Positions 3,880-63,808 of a stretch of 64,000 nt of DNA are shown here, one piece after another. This DNA is from Escherichia phage p000v. The stretch is taken from the sequence record NC_055781.1. One strand, written 5' to 3'. The notes under the pieces were generated by a model, which saw only the letters and a list, made by a program, of their open reading frames with translations, was not told the DNA's origin and searched no databases. The position numbers and the translations under genes are program-made. The first letter of the stretch is position 1, and every line of letters begins with the position of its first letter.

Positions 3880-3925
3880 TGTACAACCAAGGATGGTTGG
3901 AGTATAATGAATCTATCTTAACTAG
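3877..3925 (+). repeat. repeated early-promoter cassette (copy 1 of CAACCAAGGATGGTTGGAGTATAAT...CTATCTTAAC)
   Basis: Near-identical copy at 45146-45190 and a diverged copy at 45701-45730. Confidence 0.6.
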
Positions 3926-10992: not shown

Positions 10993-11133
10993 TCCCATTT
11001 CCAATATAATCTATTGGAATCTTCACTTCACTATCTCCTTGTGCCCCTCTCAAACCAAAAATATTTTCATAAAACAGTTTACATCCTCAATAGTTGTGTT
11101 AAGATTAAACCATCTACTATAGAGGAAAATAAA

Positions 11134-12201: not shown

Positions 12202-12256
12202 TAGTTTATGATGGTAGGAAGAAGTGTTATCTTCCTACCAATTTGAGGAGAATATC

Positions 12257-12496
12257 ATGGAACAAGAATTAGACATTATTACATCGAAAAAACGTCTTGA
12301 AGTTGTAGTGAACGGCTCAACTATTAAGTTTGTATATGACACTTTAACTGATGCTATTACCGTTAGTTGTGGCGGAAAGGCTTTTAGTCTAGATTCTACT
12401 GAAAACAAATACCCGTTCTATAAAGGTATCTTTGATATGGGTGTTGATATCAGTGTTCGTCAAGCAAACTATTTACATTATCTTATCACGAAATAA
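12257..12496 (+). CDS. hypothetical protein
   Basis: ATG with RBS GAGGAGAA. Confidence 0.45.
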   Translation: MEQELDIITSKKRLEVVVNGSTIKFVYDTLTDAITVSCGGKAFSLDSTENKYPFYKGIFDMGVDISVRQANYLHYLITK

Positions 12497-13385: not shown

Positions 13386-13457
13386 TATCTCGTGCTTTAA
13401 GATAGGTCTCTAAATATTATGATATAATAGACCTATGAATTGAGCCAAGAGGTACTT

Positions 13458-14015
13458 ATGACTGAACAAAAACCTAAAAATAACTATGTGAATAATAAAG
13501 AGCTTCTCGCCGCTATAATCGAGTGGAAAAAGGAGCTCTTAAATAATAAAGACCCAAACAAAATTATTCGTCAGAATGATACCATCGGTTTAGCAATTAT
13601 GCTTATCGCCGAAGGCCTGTCCAAACGTTTCAACTTTTCAGGATATACCCAGTCTTGGAAGCAGGAGATGATTGCAGATGGGATTGAAGCCTCTATTAAG
13701 GGACTTCATAATTTCGACGAAACTAAGTACAATAACCCACATGCATACATAACTCGAGCTTGTTTTAATGCTTTTGTCCAACGTATCAAAAAAGAACGTA
13801 AGGAAGTTGCAAAGAAATATAGTTACTTCGTTCATAATGTCTACGACAGTCATGACGATGATATGGTAGCGTTGGTAGATGAAACGTTTATTCAAGACAT
13901 CTACGATAAAATGACGCATTATGAAGAATCCGCTTATAAAGCTCCTGGGGCTGAAAAGAAGGAAGTTGTTAGCGATTCGCCTAGTTTGGATTTTTTATAT
14001 GAGGATGACAATTGA
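13458..14015 (+). CDS. 55: late-transcription sigma factor gp55
   Basis: [59 protein letters not shown] matches recalled T4 gp55; ATG 13458 with RBS GAGGT. Confidence 0.9.
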
Positions 14016-19663: not shown

Positions 19664-20626
19664 ATGATTACTATCAATTCCAAAGAACACATTCTAGAAC
19701 AGAAATATCGTCCTTCTTCCATTGACGAATGTATTCTGCCTGCGTATGACCATGAAACATTCAAGTCTTTAGTATCTAAAGGAAAACTTCCTCATATTAT
19801 TTTGCACTCTCCTTCTCCTGGTACAGGTAAAACAACCGTAGCAAAAGCATTATGTAATGATATCAATGCCGAAATGATGTTCGTCAACGGTTCTGATTGT
19901 AAGATTGATTTTGTGCGTGGTCCGTTAACTGCATTCGCTCGTTCAGTCTCAATGGAAGGCAAGCCTAAAGTTATTGTTATTGATGAATTCGACCGTAGTG
20001 GCCTCGCCGAATCACAACGCCATCTTCGTACGTTTATGGAAGAATTCTCTAGTAACTGCTCTATTGTTATTACTGCTAACAACATCGATGGAATTATTGA
20101 ACCATTACGTAGCCGTTGTCGAGTTATCGAATTCGGTCGTCCAACCGAAGAAGATAAAATCTCGATGATGAAGAAAATGATTCATCGTATGGTTGAAATC
20201 TGTAAGAACGAAAATATCGAAATCGCTGATATGAAAGTTGTTGCAGCTCTTGTTAAAAAGAACTTCCCAGACTTTCGTCGTACAATTGGACAATTAGACC
20301 AGTACTCGTCTAAAGGTGTTCTTGATGCGGGTATTCTGTCTATCGTAACTAATGACCGTGGCACAGTCTCTGATGTTATCGAAGCAATGAAGAACAAAGA
20401 TATAAAACAGCTTCGTGCATTAGCTCCAAAATATGCTGCAGATTATTCATGGTTCATCGATAAATTAGTTTCAGAATGTTATGACCAAGTTGCACCTGGT
20501 AAAAGTATTATTTCGCTTTACGAAATTGCAGGCGAAAATAATAAGTTTCATGGATTAGCAAGTAATATTGAATTACATGTTATGTATATGCTTCTTCAAC
20601 TGACCTGCGAACTGACTTGGAAATAA
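19664..20626 (+). CDS. 44: clamp loader large subunit gp44
   Basis: 320 aa; Walker [11 protein letters not shown]; synteny. Confidence 0.92.
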
Positions 20627-20627
20627 T

Positions 20628-21191
20628 ATGAACTTATTCGATGATGACGTCCAGCTTAACGAGCACCAAATTGCATGGAAGTCTAATGACGCTGATGCGA
20701 TTCAAAAATGTGCTGATATGTTTAAAGAAAAACCTGAGAATGAATTCTTTAAAATCATTAATGCTATTAATGAAAAGAAATCTATGTCAATTGCTCAGGT
20801 CGACTACTCAAAATTTATGGTTGAGAACTCATTATCCCAGTTTCCAGAATGTATGCCAGCCGTTTACATGATGAACTTAGTCGGTTCTGAATTAAGTGAT
20901 GAAGCGCACTTCAACTATATGATGGCGGCAATTCCACGTGGTCGTCGATTCTCTAAATGGGCTAAACTAGTCGAAGACACTTCAGAGTTACTAGTTATCA
21001 AACTGTTGATGAAACATTACACAATCAACATGAATGATGCCACCGAGTATAAACGGCTCCTTGAAAAAAATAACAAGCTGCCAATAGTCCTTAAAGAACT
21101 GAAGGCCATGGTCACTGATGAATTTCTCAAAGAAGTTACTAAAAACGTAAAAGAACAAAAACAATTTAAAAAATTAGCATTGGAATGGTAA
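20628..21191 (+). CDS. 62: clamp loader small subunit gp62
   Basis: 187 aa; synteny between 44 and regA. Confidence 0.85.
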
Positions 21192-24395: not shown

Positions 24396-25031
24396 ATGAA
24401 AACTACACCAATCACTATCGCTATTGACGCAATCGTAAAACAAGCTTCATCTCTTGCCACTATGGCTAAAGTAATTAGTCAAAACTCTGCCCGATATAAT
24501 GCTATTCTTGAAACTCTTCGTCGCCCTGGACTGAGTAATTATGAAAGCCGAGTAATTATTACAGGTGTTGGTAAGAACGCTAATATCGCAACTAAAGCTT
24601 CCGAGACTTTTGCTTCACTAGGTATTCCTAGCATGTATTTGAACACCGGGCATTATTCTCATGGCGACGCAGGATTTATTGCACCTAATGATGTATTAGT
24701 TCACATCAGTCGTTCTGGTAAGACTGAAGAAATGATAGGTGTTGCTAAACATCTTCGTATGATTCGTCCTCAGGTTAAACAGATTCTGTTACATTGTAAC
24801 CCTGACATTCCGCAAGAATACGAAGCTCTTTTTGATTATACGTTCTGTACAGGCATCGCGGTAGAGGTTGATGAGAATTCTCTGGCTCCGACCATGTCCA
24901 CTACATTGTTGTTAGCGCTTATCGATACGTTTGCTATCAACCTTTCGTCTGAACGTGGATTTACCTCTAATGACTTCCTTAAGTTCCACCCTGGTGGTGC
25001 ACTAGGTGCCATGTTACGAGGCGAACAATGA
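24396..25031 (+). CDS. SIS-domain sugar-phosphate isomerase, KdsD/KpsF-like arabinose-5-phosphate isomerase without CBS domains
   Basis: ITGVGKNANIATKASETFASLGIPS, SHGDAGFIAPNDVLVHISRSGKTEE and HPGGALG resemble the API SIS domain. Confidence 0.8.
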   Translation: MKTTPITIAIDAIVKQASSLATMAKVISQNSARYNAILETLRRPGLSNYESRVIITGVGKNANIATKASETFASLGIPSMYLNTGHYSHGDAGFIAPNDVLVHISRSGKTEEMIGVAKHLRMIRPQVKQILLHCNPDIPQEYEALFDYTFCTGIAVEVDENSLAPTMSTTLLLALIDTFAINLSSERGFTSNDFLKFHPGGALGAMLRGEQ

Positions 25032-25171
25032 AAGCAATAACAATAGGACTTTTACTATTGATGCTTGTCATGACTATCTACTGGAGCTTAACGGCTCCAG
25101 TAATGATTCCGACTCTTATAATCGGATGGATTATGATTGGACTACAAGCAAAGTATGAATGCTTTAACTAG
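25028..25171 (+). CDS. small hydrophobic peptide (47 aa, two predicted TM helices)
   Basis: ATGA overlap with upstream stop; below ORF-track size cutoff. Confidence 0.35.
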   Translation: MKAITIGLLLLMLVMTIYWSLTAPVMIPTLIIGWIMIGLQAKYECFN

Positions 25172-34004: not shown

Positions 34005-34010
34005 TAAAAA

Positions 34011-34029
34011 GGAGACTTCGGTCTCCTTT
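34011..34029 (+). terminator. hairpin GGAGAC-UUCG-GUCUCC + UUU
   Basis: 6 bp stem with UUCG loop right after gene 41. Confidence 0.55.
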
Positions 34030-34033
34030 CGGG

Positions 34034-34063
34034 GTTTACATCTTCCTCTAGGCATGATATGAT
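34034..34063 (+). promoter_or_regulatory. candidate early promoter GTTTAC ... TATGAT
   Basis: GTTTAC at 34034-34039, -10-like TATGAT 18 nt downstream. Confidence 0.4.
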
Positions 34064-34092: not shown

Positions 34093-34467
34093 ATGAATAT
34101 GTCTCAAGCAATTTTTACTGCAATCACCGAAAACACAACTGTTGAAGTAGTTTCTCCGCTGGCAACCTACGTTATTCTTGCTCCTAAATCTATTGTATCT
34201 CGTATGGAAAACATGGGCAAACGTATCGTACAAATCGTTGGAGCCGGAAATCAAAAACTTGATTATCTGCGAACCATCAAAGCTTATGAACATTTCCAAC
34301 TCGAAAAAGGTTCTCCCATCCAGGTAGAACTCGTAAATGGTGATATCGTTCGAGCAATGTTCCATCATTTCTATGCATTGAATGACCCATCTAAAGCGGT
34401 TCGTTTAATTGCATACGACGCAAACCAAAACGAAATCAACGCAGATATATCTAAATTACGTTTTTAA
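34093..34467 (+). CDS. hypothetical protein
   Basis: ORF track 124 aa; RBS GAGGAAAA. Confidence 0.5.
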   Translation: MNMSQAIFTAITENTTVEVVSPLATYVILAPKSIVSRMENMGKRIVQIVGAGNQKLDYLRTIKAYEHFQLEKGSPIQVELVNGDIVRAMFHHFYALNDPSKAVRLIAYDANQNEINADISKLRF

Positions 34468-34515
34468 GTTTACTTCTCCAGTAGTTATGTTATTATAGAT
34501 CTATCAACTACTGGA
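34456..34515 (+). promoter_or_regulatory. early promoter embedded in palindrome (TCTCCAGTAGTT ... AACTACTGGAGA)
   Basis: GTTTAC then ATGTTATTATAGATCTATC flanked by a 12 bp inverted repeat; related copy at 2255-2287. Confidence 0.45.
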
Positions 34516-34522
34516 GAACAAA

Positions 34523-34840
34523 ATGAAAACCATCGATTGTAAAGCAGAATTTAAGATTTTTTATCACGGTTCAAGTAGTTCAGCTAACATCGAAAACATG
34601 CTTTGTCCTCCTGAAGAAACAGGAGTTCTGTCTGAAACCGGACGTAAGAAAAACTTGAATCGTGTATTCTTTACTGAAGATATCGGTTTAGCAAAGATTT
34701 ACGCAGGACGAGCAGCACGCTCTTATGGAGGTGAACCACGTCTCTATCGAGTAATTTCTCCGGTAGATGTAGTTCAAATGAATGATACTAAAGGTGCTAC
34801 AGTTTATCATGCTGAATGGGCATTTTGCGAGGAAATATGA
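34523..34840 (+). CDS. hypothetical protein
   Basis: ORF track 105 aa. Confidence 0.5.
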   Translation: MKTIDCKAEFKIFYHGSSSSANIENMLCPPEETGVLSETGRKKNLNRVFFTEDIGLAKIYAGRAARSYGGEPRLYRVISPVDVVQMNDTKGATVYHAEWAFCEEI

Positions 34841-35025
34841 GCAAATTAACTAAAATTACTTTTATTGGCTGGTTTAAAAGCGGTGAGATGTTCACTAAAG
34901 ATATCATGTTATCAGGTGATCGTGAAGAAATCGAGTGGGTTGCGGTGCAACTCGCCGAAGTGAACAATGCATTAGTTAAAGCATTTATTAATGACGAGAA
35001 AGTTTTTGAAGCTGATTTTCGATAA
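34837..35025 (+). CDS. hypothetical protein
   Basis: ATGA overlap with upstream stop. Confidence 0.4.
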   Translation: MSKLTKITFIGWFKSGEMFTKDIMLSGDREEIEWVAVQLAEVNNALVKAFINDEKVFEADFR

Positions 35026-37509: not shown

Positions 37510-38532
37510 ATGGCTGAATGGATAGATAATGAATTTGCTTATCGTGCGTTTTCTCACCTACCTCGTTTTAGACAAATCAATAATTCAAGCACATTTAAAT
37601 TAACATTTCGATGCCCAGTTTGTGGCGACTCTCAGACAGATGCAATGAAAGCCCGCGGATGGTATTATGGCGGTACTCCAGGTAATGTGCATTGCTATAA
37701 CTGCCAATATCATAATACAATTTCTGGATACTTAAAAGAGTACGATGAAGAGCTTTATCGCGAGTATCTAATGGAAGTTCGTAAAGAAAAAGCTAGAATG
37801 GAACCAAAGATTGAAAAGGTTCCTGAACATAAACCGGAACCGGAGAAAAAGACTATAAATTCTTTGCCGTCTTGTTCTCGTCTGGACAAGTTGCCTGAAG
37901 AGCATCCTATTGTGAAATATGTTAAGTCTCGGTGTATTCCTAAAGAATCATGGAACAGATTATGGTTCACATTAGAATGGCCCAAATTGGTCAACAAGAT
38001 TCAACCTGGTACGTATAAGAAAGAGATTCCCGAGCCACGTTTAGTGATTCCTATTTTTAATAAAGACGGGAAGGCCGAGTCATTCCAAGGACGTGCACTT
38101 CGTAAAGATGCTCCTCAAAAATATATCACTATTAAAGCTTTTGAATCCGCAACAAAAATTTATGGTGTTGAACGTGTTAAGGAAGGGGACGTCTGGGTAA
38201 TGGAAGGCCCTATTGATAGTTTATTCATACCCAATGCAATAGCTATTACAGGCGGCTCAATAGATTTAGATGTGGTGCCATTTAAAGAACGTCGGGTATG
38301 GGTAATGGATAATGAACCTAGGCATCCGGATACTATAGCTCGTATGAAGCGATTAGTTGATGCAGGCGAACGTGTCATGTTCTGGGACCGAGCTCCATGG
38401 AGATCAAAGGATGTGAATGATATGGTAATGAAAGAAAATGCAACACCACAAGAAATTTTAGAATATATGAAACAGAATATTTCAAGTGGGTTGCATGCTA
38501 AAATGAGATTATCTCGTTATTCGAAGATTTAA
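37510..38532 (+). CDS. 61: DNA primase gp61
   Basis: Zinc ribbon CPVCGDS..CYNC, TOPRIM-like MEGPIDSLF and VMDNE; 340 aa. Confidence 0.9.
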   Translation: MAEWIDNEFAYRAFSHLPRFRQINNSSTFKLTFRCPVCGDSQTDAMKARGWYYGGTPGNVHCYNCQYHNTISGYLKEYDEELYREYLMEVRKEKARMEPKIEKVPEHKPEPEKKTINSLPSCSRLDKLPEEHPIVKYVKSRCIPKESWNRLWFTLEWPKLVNKIQPGTYKKEIPEPRLVIPIFNKDGKAESFQGRALRKDAPQKYITIKAFESATKIYGVERVKEGDVWVMEGPIDSLFIPNAIAITGGSIDLDVVPFKERRVWVMDNEPRHPDTIARMKRLVDAGERVMFWDRAPWRSKDVNDMVMKENATPQEILEYMKQNISSGLHAKMRLSRYSKI

Positions 38533-38726
38533 ACAAGCCCTATAATAGCAAAGGCCAAATCAACTACAGTATCCAATGGAACAGAAGGAACTATAATACC
38601 ATGGGCAACTAACAATGGTGCAATCCCGAAGTTCCATGAAATAATGCCACCTACAACTATTGCAGCGATAGCAGTTTTCTTTTTATTGCCTTTAATAGCG
38701 TTGATTAACGATGGAAGTTTAAACAT
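38529..38726 (-). CDS. small membrane protein encoded on the opposite strand
   Basis: Strong RBS AAGGAG on minus strand 5 nt before ATG; hydrophobic 65 aa. Confidence 0.5.
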   Translation of the reverse strand: MFKLPSLINAIKGNKKKTAIAAIVVGGIISWNFGIAPLLVAHGIIVPSVPLDTVVDLAFAIIGLV

Positions 38727-39618: not shown

Positions 39619-39627
39619 ATAATTTAA

Positions 39628-39651
39628 GGAATCCTTCGGGATTCCTTTTTT
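39628..39651 (+). terminator. rho-independent terminator GGAAUCC-UUCG-GGAUUCC + U6
   Basis: 7 bp stem, UUCG loop, TTTTTT. Confidence 0.65.
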
Positions 39652-40970: not shown

Positions 40971-41317
40971 AAGAGAAATTTAAAGAGAAATTCTTACTAG
41001 AAATCAAGGAAAAAGACTTTGAGACATGGTATCGAATGGTGAAAGGGTTGACATTGCTTTTTAAAGCATCCTTATTCATGTTAGAACAACCTGGTCCTGA
41101 TGGACCTTTAGTAGGAAAGCTTAAAAAGTAGTTTACATTCCCTCCTCTCGTGTTATGATAGGCTTATCTTTAAATGGAGGTCTATCATGACATGTCAATC
41201 TGAACTTCAAGAACGCGAATACCTAACAAAATCATTCATTTGAAAATGTTGAATTTTTAGTGTACAAACTCTACTGACGATGATACTATACTTTTATCAA
41301 CCACAGGAGAAACCTAA

Positions 41318-41926: not shown

Positions 41927-42079
41927 CTGGATTGGAATAACCGGATGGAACTCAGAACCATTATAACACATAAAAAATTAAAGCATTTTATGAAAAAAGA
42001 GTGTACACTACCTGAGGGCATGATATTATAGACCTATCAGCTAAATGACCTTAACGTCCGTAAGACAGAGGAAAATATT

Positions 42080-45137: not shown

Positions 45138-45145
45138 AACCAGTT

Positions 45146-45190
45146 TACAACCAAGGATGGTTGGAGTATAATCTTTCTATCTTAACCAAA
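45146..45190 (+). repeat. repeated early-promoter cassette (copy 2 of the 3877-3925 element)
   Basis: TACAACCAAGGATGGTTGGAGTATAAT...CTATCTTAACC shared with 3877-3925. Confidence 0.6.
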
Positions 45191-46645: not shown

Positions 46646-46704
46646 AGTTGTTTACTTCTCCTCTGGTTTTGATATTATAACCATATCAACCAGAGGAGAA
46701 TAAT

Positions 46705-47229
46705 ATGTTAGTTTACCGCGTAGAACGTAGTTTTTGTACTCAACGTGAATCATTACCAGGAGTTGCTATCGAAGACGGTAAAGCCGTCAGAATTTGGGAA
46801 ACCTCCTGGAATAAAGAACCTCGTTCGCCATACGGTTGGTCGGGCACCGACAACTCTGAAGAAACATGGGAGTTCCTTGATAAGCATGGAATACTCTCAG
46901 GTAACTTCTACCATCACGGCGACAACTATAATGTACCTAATCGTCCTACAGTAAATGAAGACAAACTCCTTGAACAAAATATCTTAAGATACTATAGAAT
47001 TGAGCACACATTTGAATTGAACGAAGATTGGGCTCAAGGGTTCTATTTTGGATTTGAAAGCGTTGACGCGGTTTATGCATGGTTTGATGACCAGGTGGAT
47101 GTTGAACTCTTGAAAGCTAAAGGATACTACATCGCGGTCTATGAAGCACCTGATTTCATCCTCGGAAGTTGTCAATTAATGTTTAGACGTTCATTGGCAG
47201 AACAAGTTGATTTTATTTTGCTAAAATGA
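46705..47229 (+). CDS. hypothetical protein
   Basis: ORF track 174 aa; RBS GAGGAGAA. Confidence 0.5.
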   Translation: MLVYRVERSFCTQRESLPGVAIEDGKAVRIWETSWNKEPRSPYGWSGTDNSEETWEFLDKHGILSGNFYHHGDNYNVPNRPTVNEDKLLEQNILRYYRIEHTFELNEDWAQGFYFGFESVDAVYAWFDDQVDVELLKAKGYYIAVYEAPDFILGSCQLMFRRSLAEQVDFILLK

Positions 47230-47286
47230 TGTACAACAACTATGGTCTATGATACTATAGACCTATCAAAACAAGAGGAGAATATT

Positions 47287-59741: not shown

Positions 59742-59775
59742 AAAACAGTTTACACGTGCTTCAAACATGATATTA
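59742..59775 (+). promoter_or_regulatory. candidate early promoter GTTTAC-N17-TATTAT
   Basis: AGTTTACA ... GATATTATAAACCTATC upstream of motA. Confidence 0.45.
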
Positions 59776-59820
59776 TAAACCTATCAAAACAAAACAAAAC
59801 AACCGAATTGGAGAAATAAA

Positions 59821-62587: not shown

Positions 62588-63247
62588 TTATTTAGCCCTT
62601 CCTAGTATTCGGACCGCTTGGTTGCATATAGCTGCTAAGCGATCTTCCTCAAGTATATTACTCCCCTTATACCAATACATCGTCACAGTTCCAGCGTAGA
62701 TGTTATCCAAATTAAAGTATGGACAACTATACATATAAGAAAGTTCGGCAGTCTTAGATTTTGTAGGCAAAAATGCAAATTCTGATTTAGACGAGAAATG
62801 ACGGCCACTTAAATGAATTATATATTCATTGGCCGTTTTATCCACCGGGAATCCCCCAAGGGACTTTTCAGAAATTGTGCTAGGTAGTTTGCCTTCATAA
62901 GCTATAAGGTCGACGAAATAATTTAAGTTTTTAGGTCTGAAAGAATACACAGCACTAAAATCTGCACCAGATGAGATATGAACTATTTGCAGTTGTTCTA
63001 GAGCCGCAGATTCAAAACGTAAAGCTCGTTCTTTTTGGATTATTTCAGTATAAGTATCATACTTAGATCTTACATAATAATCCAGCAAAATACTTCCTTT
63101 GTACCATATTAGTGCCATTAGGAACAAAAGAATAATTACCGCTACTCGGGACATTAAAACCTTTCCAGTAGCGTTATCTTTGAAAATACGATCTAGCAAC
63201 CCAAATAGAATATCACTAGGCGAAAATGACACTTTTGGTGTTGCCAT
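62588..63247 (-). CDS. t: holin T
   Basis: Minus strand; MA.P..SFSPSDILFG.LDR.FKDNATGKVL.SRVAV.ILLF ... matches recalled T4 holin t; 219 aa. Confidence 0.9.
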   Translation of the reverse strand: MATPKVSFSPSDILFGLLDRIFKDNATGKVLMSRVAVIILLFLMALIWYKGSILLDYYVRSKYDTYTEIIQKERALRFESAALEQLQIVHISSGADFSAVYSFRPKNLNYFVDLIAYEGKLPSTISEKSLGGFPVDKTANEYIIHLSGRHFSSKSEFAFLPTKSKTAELSYMYSCPYFNLDNIYAGTVTMYWYKGSNILEEDRLAAICNQAVRILGRAK

Positions 63248-63256
63248 AATACCTCC

Positions 63257-63808
63257 TTACTTAAAGATATTTATAATCGCTTTGATAATAGATTTGTTTT
63301 CAAGGTCAGGGAATTTAGGGAATTCGCCGCCAAGATGTTCATGTTTTTCTAAAAGGGCAAAGAATTTTTTGAGCTCTTTAAATTTTCGTTTTTCTTCTCT
63401 ATTAGCAACCTCTGCGTCAATAAGAGAACTTAAAACACTGAATAATTTATAGAGTTCATGAATTTTCTTATCACGTTGAACTACACGTTTATATGCTTCA
63501 TCTTCCTTCCACCCGTCGTCGGTCCAAAGGTCAAATTCACCAGGTTCTTCTGTAGTAACATTTTGAAGAGCACCTGGAGTGTCAATAACAATTTTTTGCT
63601 TATCATATGTCCATACTGTTTTTCCTCGATGGTCTTCAACATATACCCATTCTTGCTCGCGTTCGTCAAATATAACAGCATAGCCTTCTTTAGGGTCTAA
63701 AGGTTTTTTTGGTGTCGAATGAGCCGGAAATCCTACGCCTTTTAATGGTTTATAATTTTCTTCTTTGTAAAATTCTTTAGTGTCAAAATAATAGTGATAG
63801 AGTTTCAT
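63257..63808 (-). CDS. 38: long tail fiber assembly/adhesin protein gp38
   Basis: Minus strand; MK.YHYYFDTKEFYKEENYKP.KG.G.PAHST.KKPL.PKEGYAV.FDER matches recalled T4 gp38; 183 aa. Confidence 0.85.
   Translation of the reverse strand: MKLYHYYFDTKEFYKEENYKPLKGVGFPAHSTPKKPLDPKEGYAVIFDEREQEWVYVEDHRGKTVWTYDKQKIVIDTPGALQNVTTEEPGEFDLWTDDGWKEDEAYKRVVQRDKKIHELYKLFSVLSSLIDAEVANREEKRKFKELKKFFALLEKHEHLGGEFPKFPDLENKSIIKAIINIFK

Follow-up and report, generated by a model that had tools for sequence, protein, structure and literature searches.

A predicted early promoter of Escherichia phage p000v with its -10 element enclosed by a perfect inverted repeat that may mask the Shine-Dalgarno sequence of its own gene

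The early promoters of T4-type phages share a consensus comprising GTTTAC at positions -36 to -31, a TGn extended -10, the hexamer TAnnnT and an upstream region rich in A/T, with extra conservation near the start of transcription (PMC1524935, PMC2988021). The early promoters of T4 have an A-rich sequence resembling an upstream (UP) element at -40 to -60 (same sources), and for RB69 a set of 58 early promoters was predicted by Nolan et al. (2006, Virol J 3:30; PMC1524935). We report here on a candidate member of this class at 34444-34523 of a 64,000-nucleotide (nt) stretch of Escherichia phage p000v (NC_055781.1), hereafter the window, in which the -10 element is enclosed by a perfect inverted repeat whose 3' arm contains the Shine-Dalgarno (SD) sequence of a 105-residue open reading frame (ORF). 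All features of the window lie on the + strand unless otherwise stated.

That a promoter and a stem-loop may form one unit is already known, from the annotation of T4 denV and ipII in 1986 and from a class named in 2010 and 2014. GenBank entry X04567 (1986) labels the inverted repeats B/B', C/C' and D/D' at T4 ipII, denV and ORF 61.9 as 'pot. transcription terminator'; the -10 lies in the loop of these repeats and, for denV and ORF 61.9, the ribosome-binding site (RBS) lies in the 3' arm. The promoter-early stem-loop (PeSL) cassettes of T4-like phages (Arbiol 2010, PMC2839356; Comeau 2014, PMC4122927) carry a strong sigma-70-type early promoter with a T4/PST consensus of TTTACW-N17-TAYWAT, and a stem-loop that is often found between the -35 and -10 elements or over the -10. 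Their published reading is that of a terminator or attenuator, not of a translational mask, and RB69-type phages are not in the catalogue. In a further group, made up of the T4 genes e, soc, 49 and I-TevI, RNA that was started upstream hides the SD and/or the AUG, whereas RNA from an internal promoter lacks the 5' strand of the structure and is translated (PMC3014915).

The p000v site shares with the PeSL cassettes the gathering of an early promoter, a stable stem-loop, an SD and a start codon into one short intergenic motif, adjoining variable ORFs and indels and with recombination joints inside the motif. It agrees with the commonest PeSL subclasses in that the spacer holds the 5' arm and the loop holds the -10, but its 3' arm crosses the start into the SD, a geometry outside the five described subclasses, whose stem-loops lie upstream of, inside or just downstream of the promoter; its stem is neither of the polyG/polyC kind nor followed by a U-tract. 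Closer still is the T4 denV promoter, GTTTACA-TCTCCTGTAG-gtatga-TACTATAGACCTATCAA-CTACAGGAGA, which has the same 15-mer (TAYWATAGACCTATC, present verbatim) in the same register, its -10 falling in the loop and its RBS in the 3' arm; it differs in its downstream gene, in a stem of 10 bp, in a compensatory swap of T:A to A:T and in being annotated as a potential terminator. By analogy, the site may work like the e, soc, 49 and I-TevI family while standing outside the described set: there the internal promoter is late (gp55, TATAAATA) and delays expression, whereas that of p000v is a sigma-70 early promoter, and the control demonstrated by experiment in those T4 genes is at our site a prediction. 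A search of the T4 and RB69 literature found no usable mapped transcript starts or ends at sites of this kind.

The promoter and its inverted repeat

An A/T-rich, UP-like stretch (TATATCTAAATTACGTTTTTAA, 34444-34467), recognised by its composition only, ends in the TAA stop (34465-34467) of an upstream 124-residue ORF and is followed by the -35 element GTTTAC at 34468-34473, a match to the T4-type consensus in which the sigma-70 hexamer TTTACT is 34469-34474. The 16-nt spacer between -35 and -10 contains the 5' arm of the repeat (TTCTCCAGTAGTT, 34474-34486) and, within that arm, the anti-SD sequence CTCC; it leads to an extended -10 at 34488-34496, TGt plus TATTAT (hexamer 34491-34496; aTGt 34487-34490), that lies in the hairpin loop. 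The discriminator and start region (AGATCTATC, 34497-34505) is delimited by an alignment of seven copies, described below, and the same block occurs at T4 PdenV. From this alignment the predicted +1 is A34503, the seventh nt past the -10. The 3' arm (AACTACTGGAGAA, 34506-34518) includes the SD, GGAG at 34513-34516, and ends 4 nt 5' of the ATG, with CAAA leading to the ATG of the 105-residue ORF at 34523; SD and ATG together lie 17-27 nt 3' of the -10 hexamer.

All features of the early consensus are present: GTTTAC, the 16-nt spacer, TGn, TAnnnT and the A/T-rich UP-like region. The GTTTAC-like and -10 elements named in a preliminary description of this DNA are borne out by this match and by the RB69 ortholog of the site, 98% identical to it, which is the published predicted early promoter Pe:20537 (20489-20537, minus strand; additional file 3). 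Eleven other window promoters from our scan also coincide with entries of the published RB69 list. Consensus and comparative evidence, from which activity and start site are likewise predicted, make it highly likely that the site is a 'T4 early' promoter for the sigma-70 form of the host RNA polymerase, and it is predicted to drive the 105-residue ORF together with the overlapping dmd.

Pe:20537 lies between RB69ORF041c and ORF040c, agrees with the site in its -35, -10 and SD, and shares a 10-bp core of the stem. It differs in having AGACC for AGATC, a spacer region shorter by 1 nt and ACCTAC for AACTAC, and because of these differences the RB69 stem runs for 10 bp and then meets a mismatch. 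The RB69 paper gives coordinates only for this promoter and does not mention the repeat.

The arms at 34474-34486 and 34506-34518 form a perfect inverted repeat of 13 bp with a 19-nt loop. The preliminary description had recognised this repeat, one base pair short at 12 bp and with no role assigned to it, and had set the promoter elements between its arms, which is correct for TGn, -10 and start region, the only elements in the loop, but not for the -35 hexamer, which is just outside the stem. If two mismatches are allowed the repeat grows to 18 nt (34469-34486 / 34506-34523, 89% complementary) and then reaches from the -35 hexamer as far as the first base of the ATG. The 64 kb contain a single further perfect inverted repeat with at least 12 bp and a loop of at most 40 nt (46656-46668 / 46688-46700), and first-order Markov simulations produced 0.37 +/- 0.6 such repeats per simulated sequence. 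This second repeat, of 13 bp (TTCTCCTCTGGTT / AACCAGAGGAGAA) and again with a 19-nt loop, belongs to an early promoter at 46650-46707, has the same register as the site and lies 5' of a 174-residue ORF at 46705-47229, in the position of RB69 motB.2. None of the Rfam 15 families matched at gathering score anywhere in the window.

The 15-mer TAYWATAGACCTATC, with at most one mismatch, has seven matches in the window, all on the + strand (785, 2261, 13423, 34491, 42024, 47253 and 59771), against a chance expectation of 0.02 from shuffles, none of 100 of which reached seven. Aligned, the seven copies read GT(T/G)TACA, a spacer of 16-17 nt ending in ATGA or ATGT, TA(T/C)(T/A)AT and then AGACCTATCAA. 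The recurrence that the preliminary description had pointed out is thus real, though two of its coordinates were off by 6-9 nt (the copies lie at 42024-42038, not 42030-42045, and at 47253-47267, not 47262-47276) and the copy at 59771 had been missed; its statement that the downstream arm and core occur again at 2255-2287 holds as a 30-mer, ATGTTATTATAGACCTATCAACTACTGGAG, of which 29 of 30 positions agree at 2255-2284. It had also called the motif a conserved initiation-region signature, and this describes it well: the 15-mer consists of the -10 hexamer, the discriminator and the predicted start, and all seven copies lie 26-50 nt 5' of an SD and start codon on the same strand. A simple scan of the window finds about 25 T4-type early promoters on the + strand, nearly all directly 5' of an SD and ATG, which have nnnYYTATC in common 3' of the -10. 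The 15-mer is the AGACC sub-type of this general start-region consensus, already described, with the A of CTATC as the predicted +1. A promoter for a phage polymerase or a new sigma factor, which the 15-nt block might have suggested, was rejected: the block is a sigma-70 -10 and start accompanied by GTTTAC and TGn, and the phage itself belongs to the T4-like group.

Pairing between the spacer and the downstream sequence

For the 22 clearest promoters of the window, the duplex between each spacer and its own -10-to-ATG region has a mean energy of -10.1 kcal/mol, compared with -7.2 for swapped pairs, a difference reached in none of 20000 permutations. The same is seen at other T4-like loci, in a set of 44 representative promoters drawn from IMG/VR and GenBank with close relatives of the window left out (own -11.2 against swapped -8.0 kcal/mol; 0 of 20000 permutations). 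Complementarity of the spacer to the sequence downstream is therefore a general property of T4-like early promoters.

The pairing takes one of two registers. In the SD-type the 3' arm covers the SD, as at the window promoters 11078, 34035, 34469 (the site), 41132 and 46651; in the -10-type the 3' arm is the -10 and discriminator, as at 2239, 35781, 47230, 56668, 57180 and 57442 and at the T4 dmd promoter. The latter (MT984581 2040-2100, minus strand) has a 12-bp repeat, CTGACAAGACTA / TAGTCTTGTCGG, with one U:G, around TATAGT, and is unlike the dmd-operon promoter of the window in both sequence and register. Placement of the 3' arm was SD-type in 12 cases, -10-type in 12 and neither in none; because untranslated regions (UTRs) of about 35 nt leave few intermediate positions possible, we give this split no weight.

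A scan of viral contigs with the core TATAGACCTATCAAC yielded 33 distinct T4-like promoter sequences, and a looser second scan 30. On this same core sit different pairs of arms: TCTCCAGTAG/CTACTGGAG, TCTCCTGTAG/CTACAGGAGA (T4 denV), TCTCCATTAG/CTAATGGAGA, TCTCCTCATG/CATGAGGAGA and, from the window, TTCTCCTCTGGTT/AACCAGAGGAGAA. In a 13-sequence class I alignment, which was picked by eye for the SD-pairing class and is descriptive, the permutation tests being the unbiased evidence, 83% of cells pair, 6 of the 12 pairs have changes on both sides and the covariation score is 0.325 as against 0.135 in shuffles (0 of 500), collapsing once the partners are shifted against each other by 1-3 columns. 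In other genera, orthologs of the promoter of the 105-residue ORF also keep the start of the spacer matched to the SD, with TCTCC/GGAGA in Dhakavirus IME540, ATCTCC/GGAGAT in phiR1-RT and TCCTC/GAGGA in PEi26, where the SD is GGAGGA. Taken together, these comparisons indicate that selection acts, across T4-like genera, on base pairing of the spacer with the sequence downstream.

A repeat centred on a -10 could also be an operator for a dimeric repressor of phage or host, or, as a variant, the palindrome in the loop (ATAGATCTAT) could be a protein site. The symmetry around the -10 would suit this, as would the fact that T4 early shut-off is not fully explained (PMC2988021). Since the arm sequences differ among promoters while their base pairing is conserved, one sequence-specific protein cannot read them; the arms covary as expected of pairing. 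No other copy has a perfect loop palindrome; here one C-to-T change from AGACC makes it, and the close relatives JK45 and RB69 carry AGACC at this position. On these two grounds, the covarying arms and the change confined to a single copy, operator and palindrome function were ruled out, and we regard them as barely credible.

Predicted masking of the Shine-Dalgarno sequence and competing explanations

RNA of 34462-34530 folds with a minimum free energy (MFE) of -18.4 kcal/mol (z = -3.84; none of 200 shuffles folds as well). Using the partition function and a read-through RNA beginning 40 nt upstream of the -35, we find that opening the segment from SD to AUG at the site costs 15.0 kcal/mol in the read-through RNA and 3.0 kcal/mol in RNA from the predicted +1. 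The promoters at 11078, 41132 and 46651 show the same switch between read-through and promoter-proximal RNA, of more than 11 kcal/mol: the difference is about 11 kcal/mol at each of the first two, and at 46650-46707 opening the SD costs 18.6 kcal/mol in the read-through and 5.1 in the proximal RNA. At P34035 and 56668 the difference is about 4.5 kcal/mol, and at the remaining window promoters 0-2.6. The stop of the upstream 124-residue ORF is 7 nt from the stem with no terminator between them, so a read-through RNA must exist; a ribosome terminating at this stop would touch no more than the stem's first base pairs.

These values suggest a mechanism in which the spacer is coded twice, 13 of its nt being exactly complementary to the 5' UTR and SD of its own gene. 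RNA from A34503 would start between the arms and, having no 5' arm, would present a free and translatable GGAG. RNA from upstream would hold both arms and would fold into a hairpin of 13-16 bp that hides the SD, up to the AUG. On the read-through RNA the 105-residue ORF would be silent, as probably would dmd, whose start overlaps the stop of that ORF. If the read-through RNA is translationally silent, then expression of the gene pair is tied to its own immediate-early promoter, from which alone it would be expressed, and placing an early promoter within a hairpin is predicted to confine expression to the immediate-early burst. In T4-type phages the GGAG and A-rich tail of the promoter-started RNA would also be open to RegB, which cuts GGAG in early intergenic regions and whose cleavage is blocked by RNA structure (PMC3014915). 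We hold masking of the SD to be the role of the hairpin at this site by a slender margin of probability, and the whole reading, of an early promoter with SD masking, to be one that we favour, if modestly.

Several observations weigh against this reading. About half of the promoter-spanning stems (among them 2239, 35781, 56668, 57180 and T4 dmd) end at the -10 and start region and leave the SD free, with differences in opening cost of 0.1-4.6 kcal/mol; as the SD is free in half of the stems, masking cannot be the general reason for the repeats. For the ORF at 2294 the stem is of the -10-type in the window but of the SD-type in another phage, so that what is conserved is a hairpin across the -10 and not a register, which favours a function common to both classes. 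In phage LF82-16 the same 105-residue ORF is driven by a promoter with CTCC/GGAG complementarity only, and a strong stem is therefore not essential. Sense and antisense MFE are alike (-9.8 and -9.9 kcal/mol, p = 0.76) and do not distinguish action as RNA from action as DNA, and the covariation alignment, as said above, is descriptive. Lastly, a PeSL stem-loop of RB49 cut expression of a lacZ transcriptional fusion about as much as rrnB T1 did, as a terminator would (PMC2839356).

This last result supports the main rival, in which the stem-loop is a terminator or attenuator of upstream transcription that guards the promoter from occlusion and limits the piling-up of early transcripts. Such a role covers both classes of stem, and X04567 gives the label of potential terminator to the homologous denV and ipII repeats. 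The spanning stems are weaker after a canonical terminator (mean -6.9 kcal/mol, n=5, against -11.1, n=17), which is a trend only and fits any model in which the hairpin handles read-through RNA. The anatomy of the site, on the other hand, is not that of a terminator: there is no U-tract past the stem (GGAGAA followed by CAAAAUGAAAAC; tail CAAAATGA), the loop measures 19 nt, the G+C content of the stem is only moderate, the scan for terminators made no call here and the TransTerm list of Nolan et al. has none at the RB69 site. The phage has textbook terminators with UUCG loops elsewhere; at P34035 a canonical terminator and an SD-pairing spacer occur together, so the two features are not simple alternatives; and the RB49 stems that were tested were polyG/polyC, unlike that of the site. 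A canonical Rho-independent terminator is ruled out by the loop, the missing U-tract and the lack of a scan call, and we consider a terminating or attenuating function in the wider sense unlikely, though it deserves to be taken seriously.

Less probable again, at something like an outside chance, is a generic intercistronic RNA hairpin, a barrier to 3' exonucleases or a determinant of processing that stabilises the upstream cistron after a cut by RegB or RNase E and whose overlap with the promoter would follow simply from intergenic spacers of 50-90 nt. Such a hairpin would explain both registers, and why a hairpin is kept where the register is not, and the cutting of early intergenic GGAG by RegB, blocked by structure, is in keeping with it. 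With its GGAG in the stem, however, the site would not allow RegB to make a 3' end just downstream, and the repeated exact pairing of spacer with SD is left unexplained.

The equal stability of the sense and antisense folds would also be expected if the repeat works at the level of DNA, by forming a cruciform or single-strand hairpin that stimulates recombination or marks where cassettes end, its effects in RNA being incidental. Recombination joints do fall inside the modules, and PeSL mini-circles have been detected experimentally in RB49 and phi1 (PMC2839356). Homologous exchange, however, depends on direct sequence identity from module to module rather than on an inverted repeat inside a single module; arms of 13 bp around a 19-nt loop make a poor cruciform; and the arms vary among modules, the conserved part being the loop, which is the promoter core. 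The U:G pairs in several stems, which hint at sense RNA, would be A:C mismatches on the other strand. We think a role in DNA very improbable.

Returning to masking of the SD, our broader proposal, tentative and in our judgement rather more doubtful than probable, is that the spacers of T4-like early promoters are systematically antisense, in one class to their own SD and in the other to the -10 and start, and act as a cis 'insulator' carried by the cassette. If so, this insulator would silence or block read-through from neighbours, so that a cassette stays autonomous and strictly immediate-early wherever it is recombined, and PeSL stem-loops, at least those of the SD-pairing class, would be translational masks rather than terminators. 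The module of promoter and 5' UTR would also serve as a patch of homology for the gain and loss of ORF cassettes, as in the behaviour of PeSL (Arbiol 2010, Comeau 2014).

As annotation the site is of small value, being one of about 25 early promoters in the window and of a described class, although it names the promoter serving dmd. What is added here is evidence from permutation, covariation and opening energy for a selected pairing, and an SD-masking subset that includes the site: the promoters at 11078, 34469, 41132 and 46651 form a discrete class whose read-through RNA is predicted to be untranslatable, a testable refinement of the reading of PeSL as terminators. The result is relevant to the reuse of compact promoter cassettes in phage engineering.

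Gene neighbourhood and other early promoters of the window

By megablast the window is about 97.5% identical to RB69-like T4-type phages, including Shigella phage JK45 and FP43, and nearly all of its genes are on the + strand, the early-gene strand. The gene order around the site is uvsX, 40, 41, terminator, 124-residue ORF, site, 105-residue ORF, dmd, imm.1, imm, sp ... 61. The 124-residue ORF (34093-34467) is a homolog of RB69ORF041c (phrog_10668) and a variable cassette, and the 105-residue ORF (34523-34840), the first gene of the promoter, is a homolog of RB69ORF040c (phrog_2110); searches of Pfam and PHROGs with these two flanking ORFs returned families of unknown function only. The product of dmd (34837-35025; annotated, and matching Pfam PF17587 at 70.6 bits) is an antitoxin, the discriminator of mRNA degradation, and its start overlaps the stop of the 105-residue ORF in ATGA. 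This antitoxin is needed immediately, to neutralise the host toxins RnlA and LsoA.

Among near-identical phages the 124-residue ORF is a cassette that may be present or absent, and it is absent from LF82-16 and EP02SG. EP02SG carries a hybrid promoter in which P34035 is joined to the SD and ATG of the 105-residue ORF, with the crossover in AGAGGA|GAACAAAATG, and in LF82-16 a different spacer is joined to window sequence from the extended -10 on. In more distant phages homology to the window sets in immediately 5' of the -35 or else at the extended -10. The joints of EP02SG and LF82-16 fall inside the module of promoter and SD and represent modular shuffling of the PeSL type.

A canonical terminator after gene 41, AAAGGAGAC-ttcg-GTCTCCTTT with a UUCG loop (34008-34029), is followed directly by the early promoter P34035, the two occupying 34008-34063. 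P34035 is RB69 Pe:20971, beside which RB69 has a TransTerm terminator at 20965-20980 (Nolan 2006, PMC1524935), and its spacer CTTCCTCT pairs with its own SD, AGAGGAA. Canonical UUCG-tetraloop terminators with flanking A/T tracts lie at 34008-34029, at 39626-39647 and upstream of 59749, directly 5' of early promoters, and in phage VR20 the -35-like TTACA of the orthologous promoter lies in the loop of a UUCG-type terminator. A perfect 9-bp hairpin, TACTGGAGC-ttaacg-GCTCCAGTA, is found at 25079-25102, intergenic and after a 211-residue ORF (24396-25031).

Motif and promoter scans place the remaining copies of the 15-mer in early promoters at 763-799 (15-mer at 785-799), at 42002-42038, 5' of the ORF in the srd position and equal to RB69 Pe:12088, at 47230-47267, where GGTCTAT / ATAGACC flank the -10 and which equals RB69 Pe:6863, and, with one mismatch, at 59749-59785. 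The early promoter at 2239-2296, which carries the 29 of 30 nt (2255-2284) shared with the site and is its paralog, has a spacer, AGGTCTAT, that pairs with ATAGACCT beside the -10. The copy at 13423-13437, 5' of the ORF in the gene 55 position, has no GTTTAC -35, and a repeat, ATAGGTCT / AGACCTAT, flanks its -10; in the same region (13391-13460) a MotA-box-like TGCTTTA occurs, but its distance of 23 nt to the -10 is greater than a standard middle promoter would allow.

The early promoters at 11078-11110 (spacer TCCTCAATAGT) and 41132-41162 (CCCTCC) have spacers that pair with their own SD. Those at 3880-3908 and 45144-45172, 41 kb apart, have an identical 17-nt spacer, ACCAAGGATGGTTGGAG, and the -10 TATAAT, which suggests duplication or exchange of a promoter module. 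At 12202-12260 an 11-bp perfect repeat, TGGTAGGAAGA-agtgtta-TCTTCCTACCA, lies between GTTTAT and GAGGAGAATATCATG and looks like a degenerate module of promoter plus stem-loop with the weak -10 TATCTT. The few ORFs on the minus strand are at 38529-38726, a homolog of RB69ORF029w between genes 61 and 56, and at 62588-63247 and 63257-63808, at the right end of the window.

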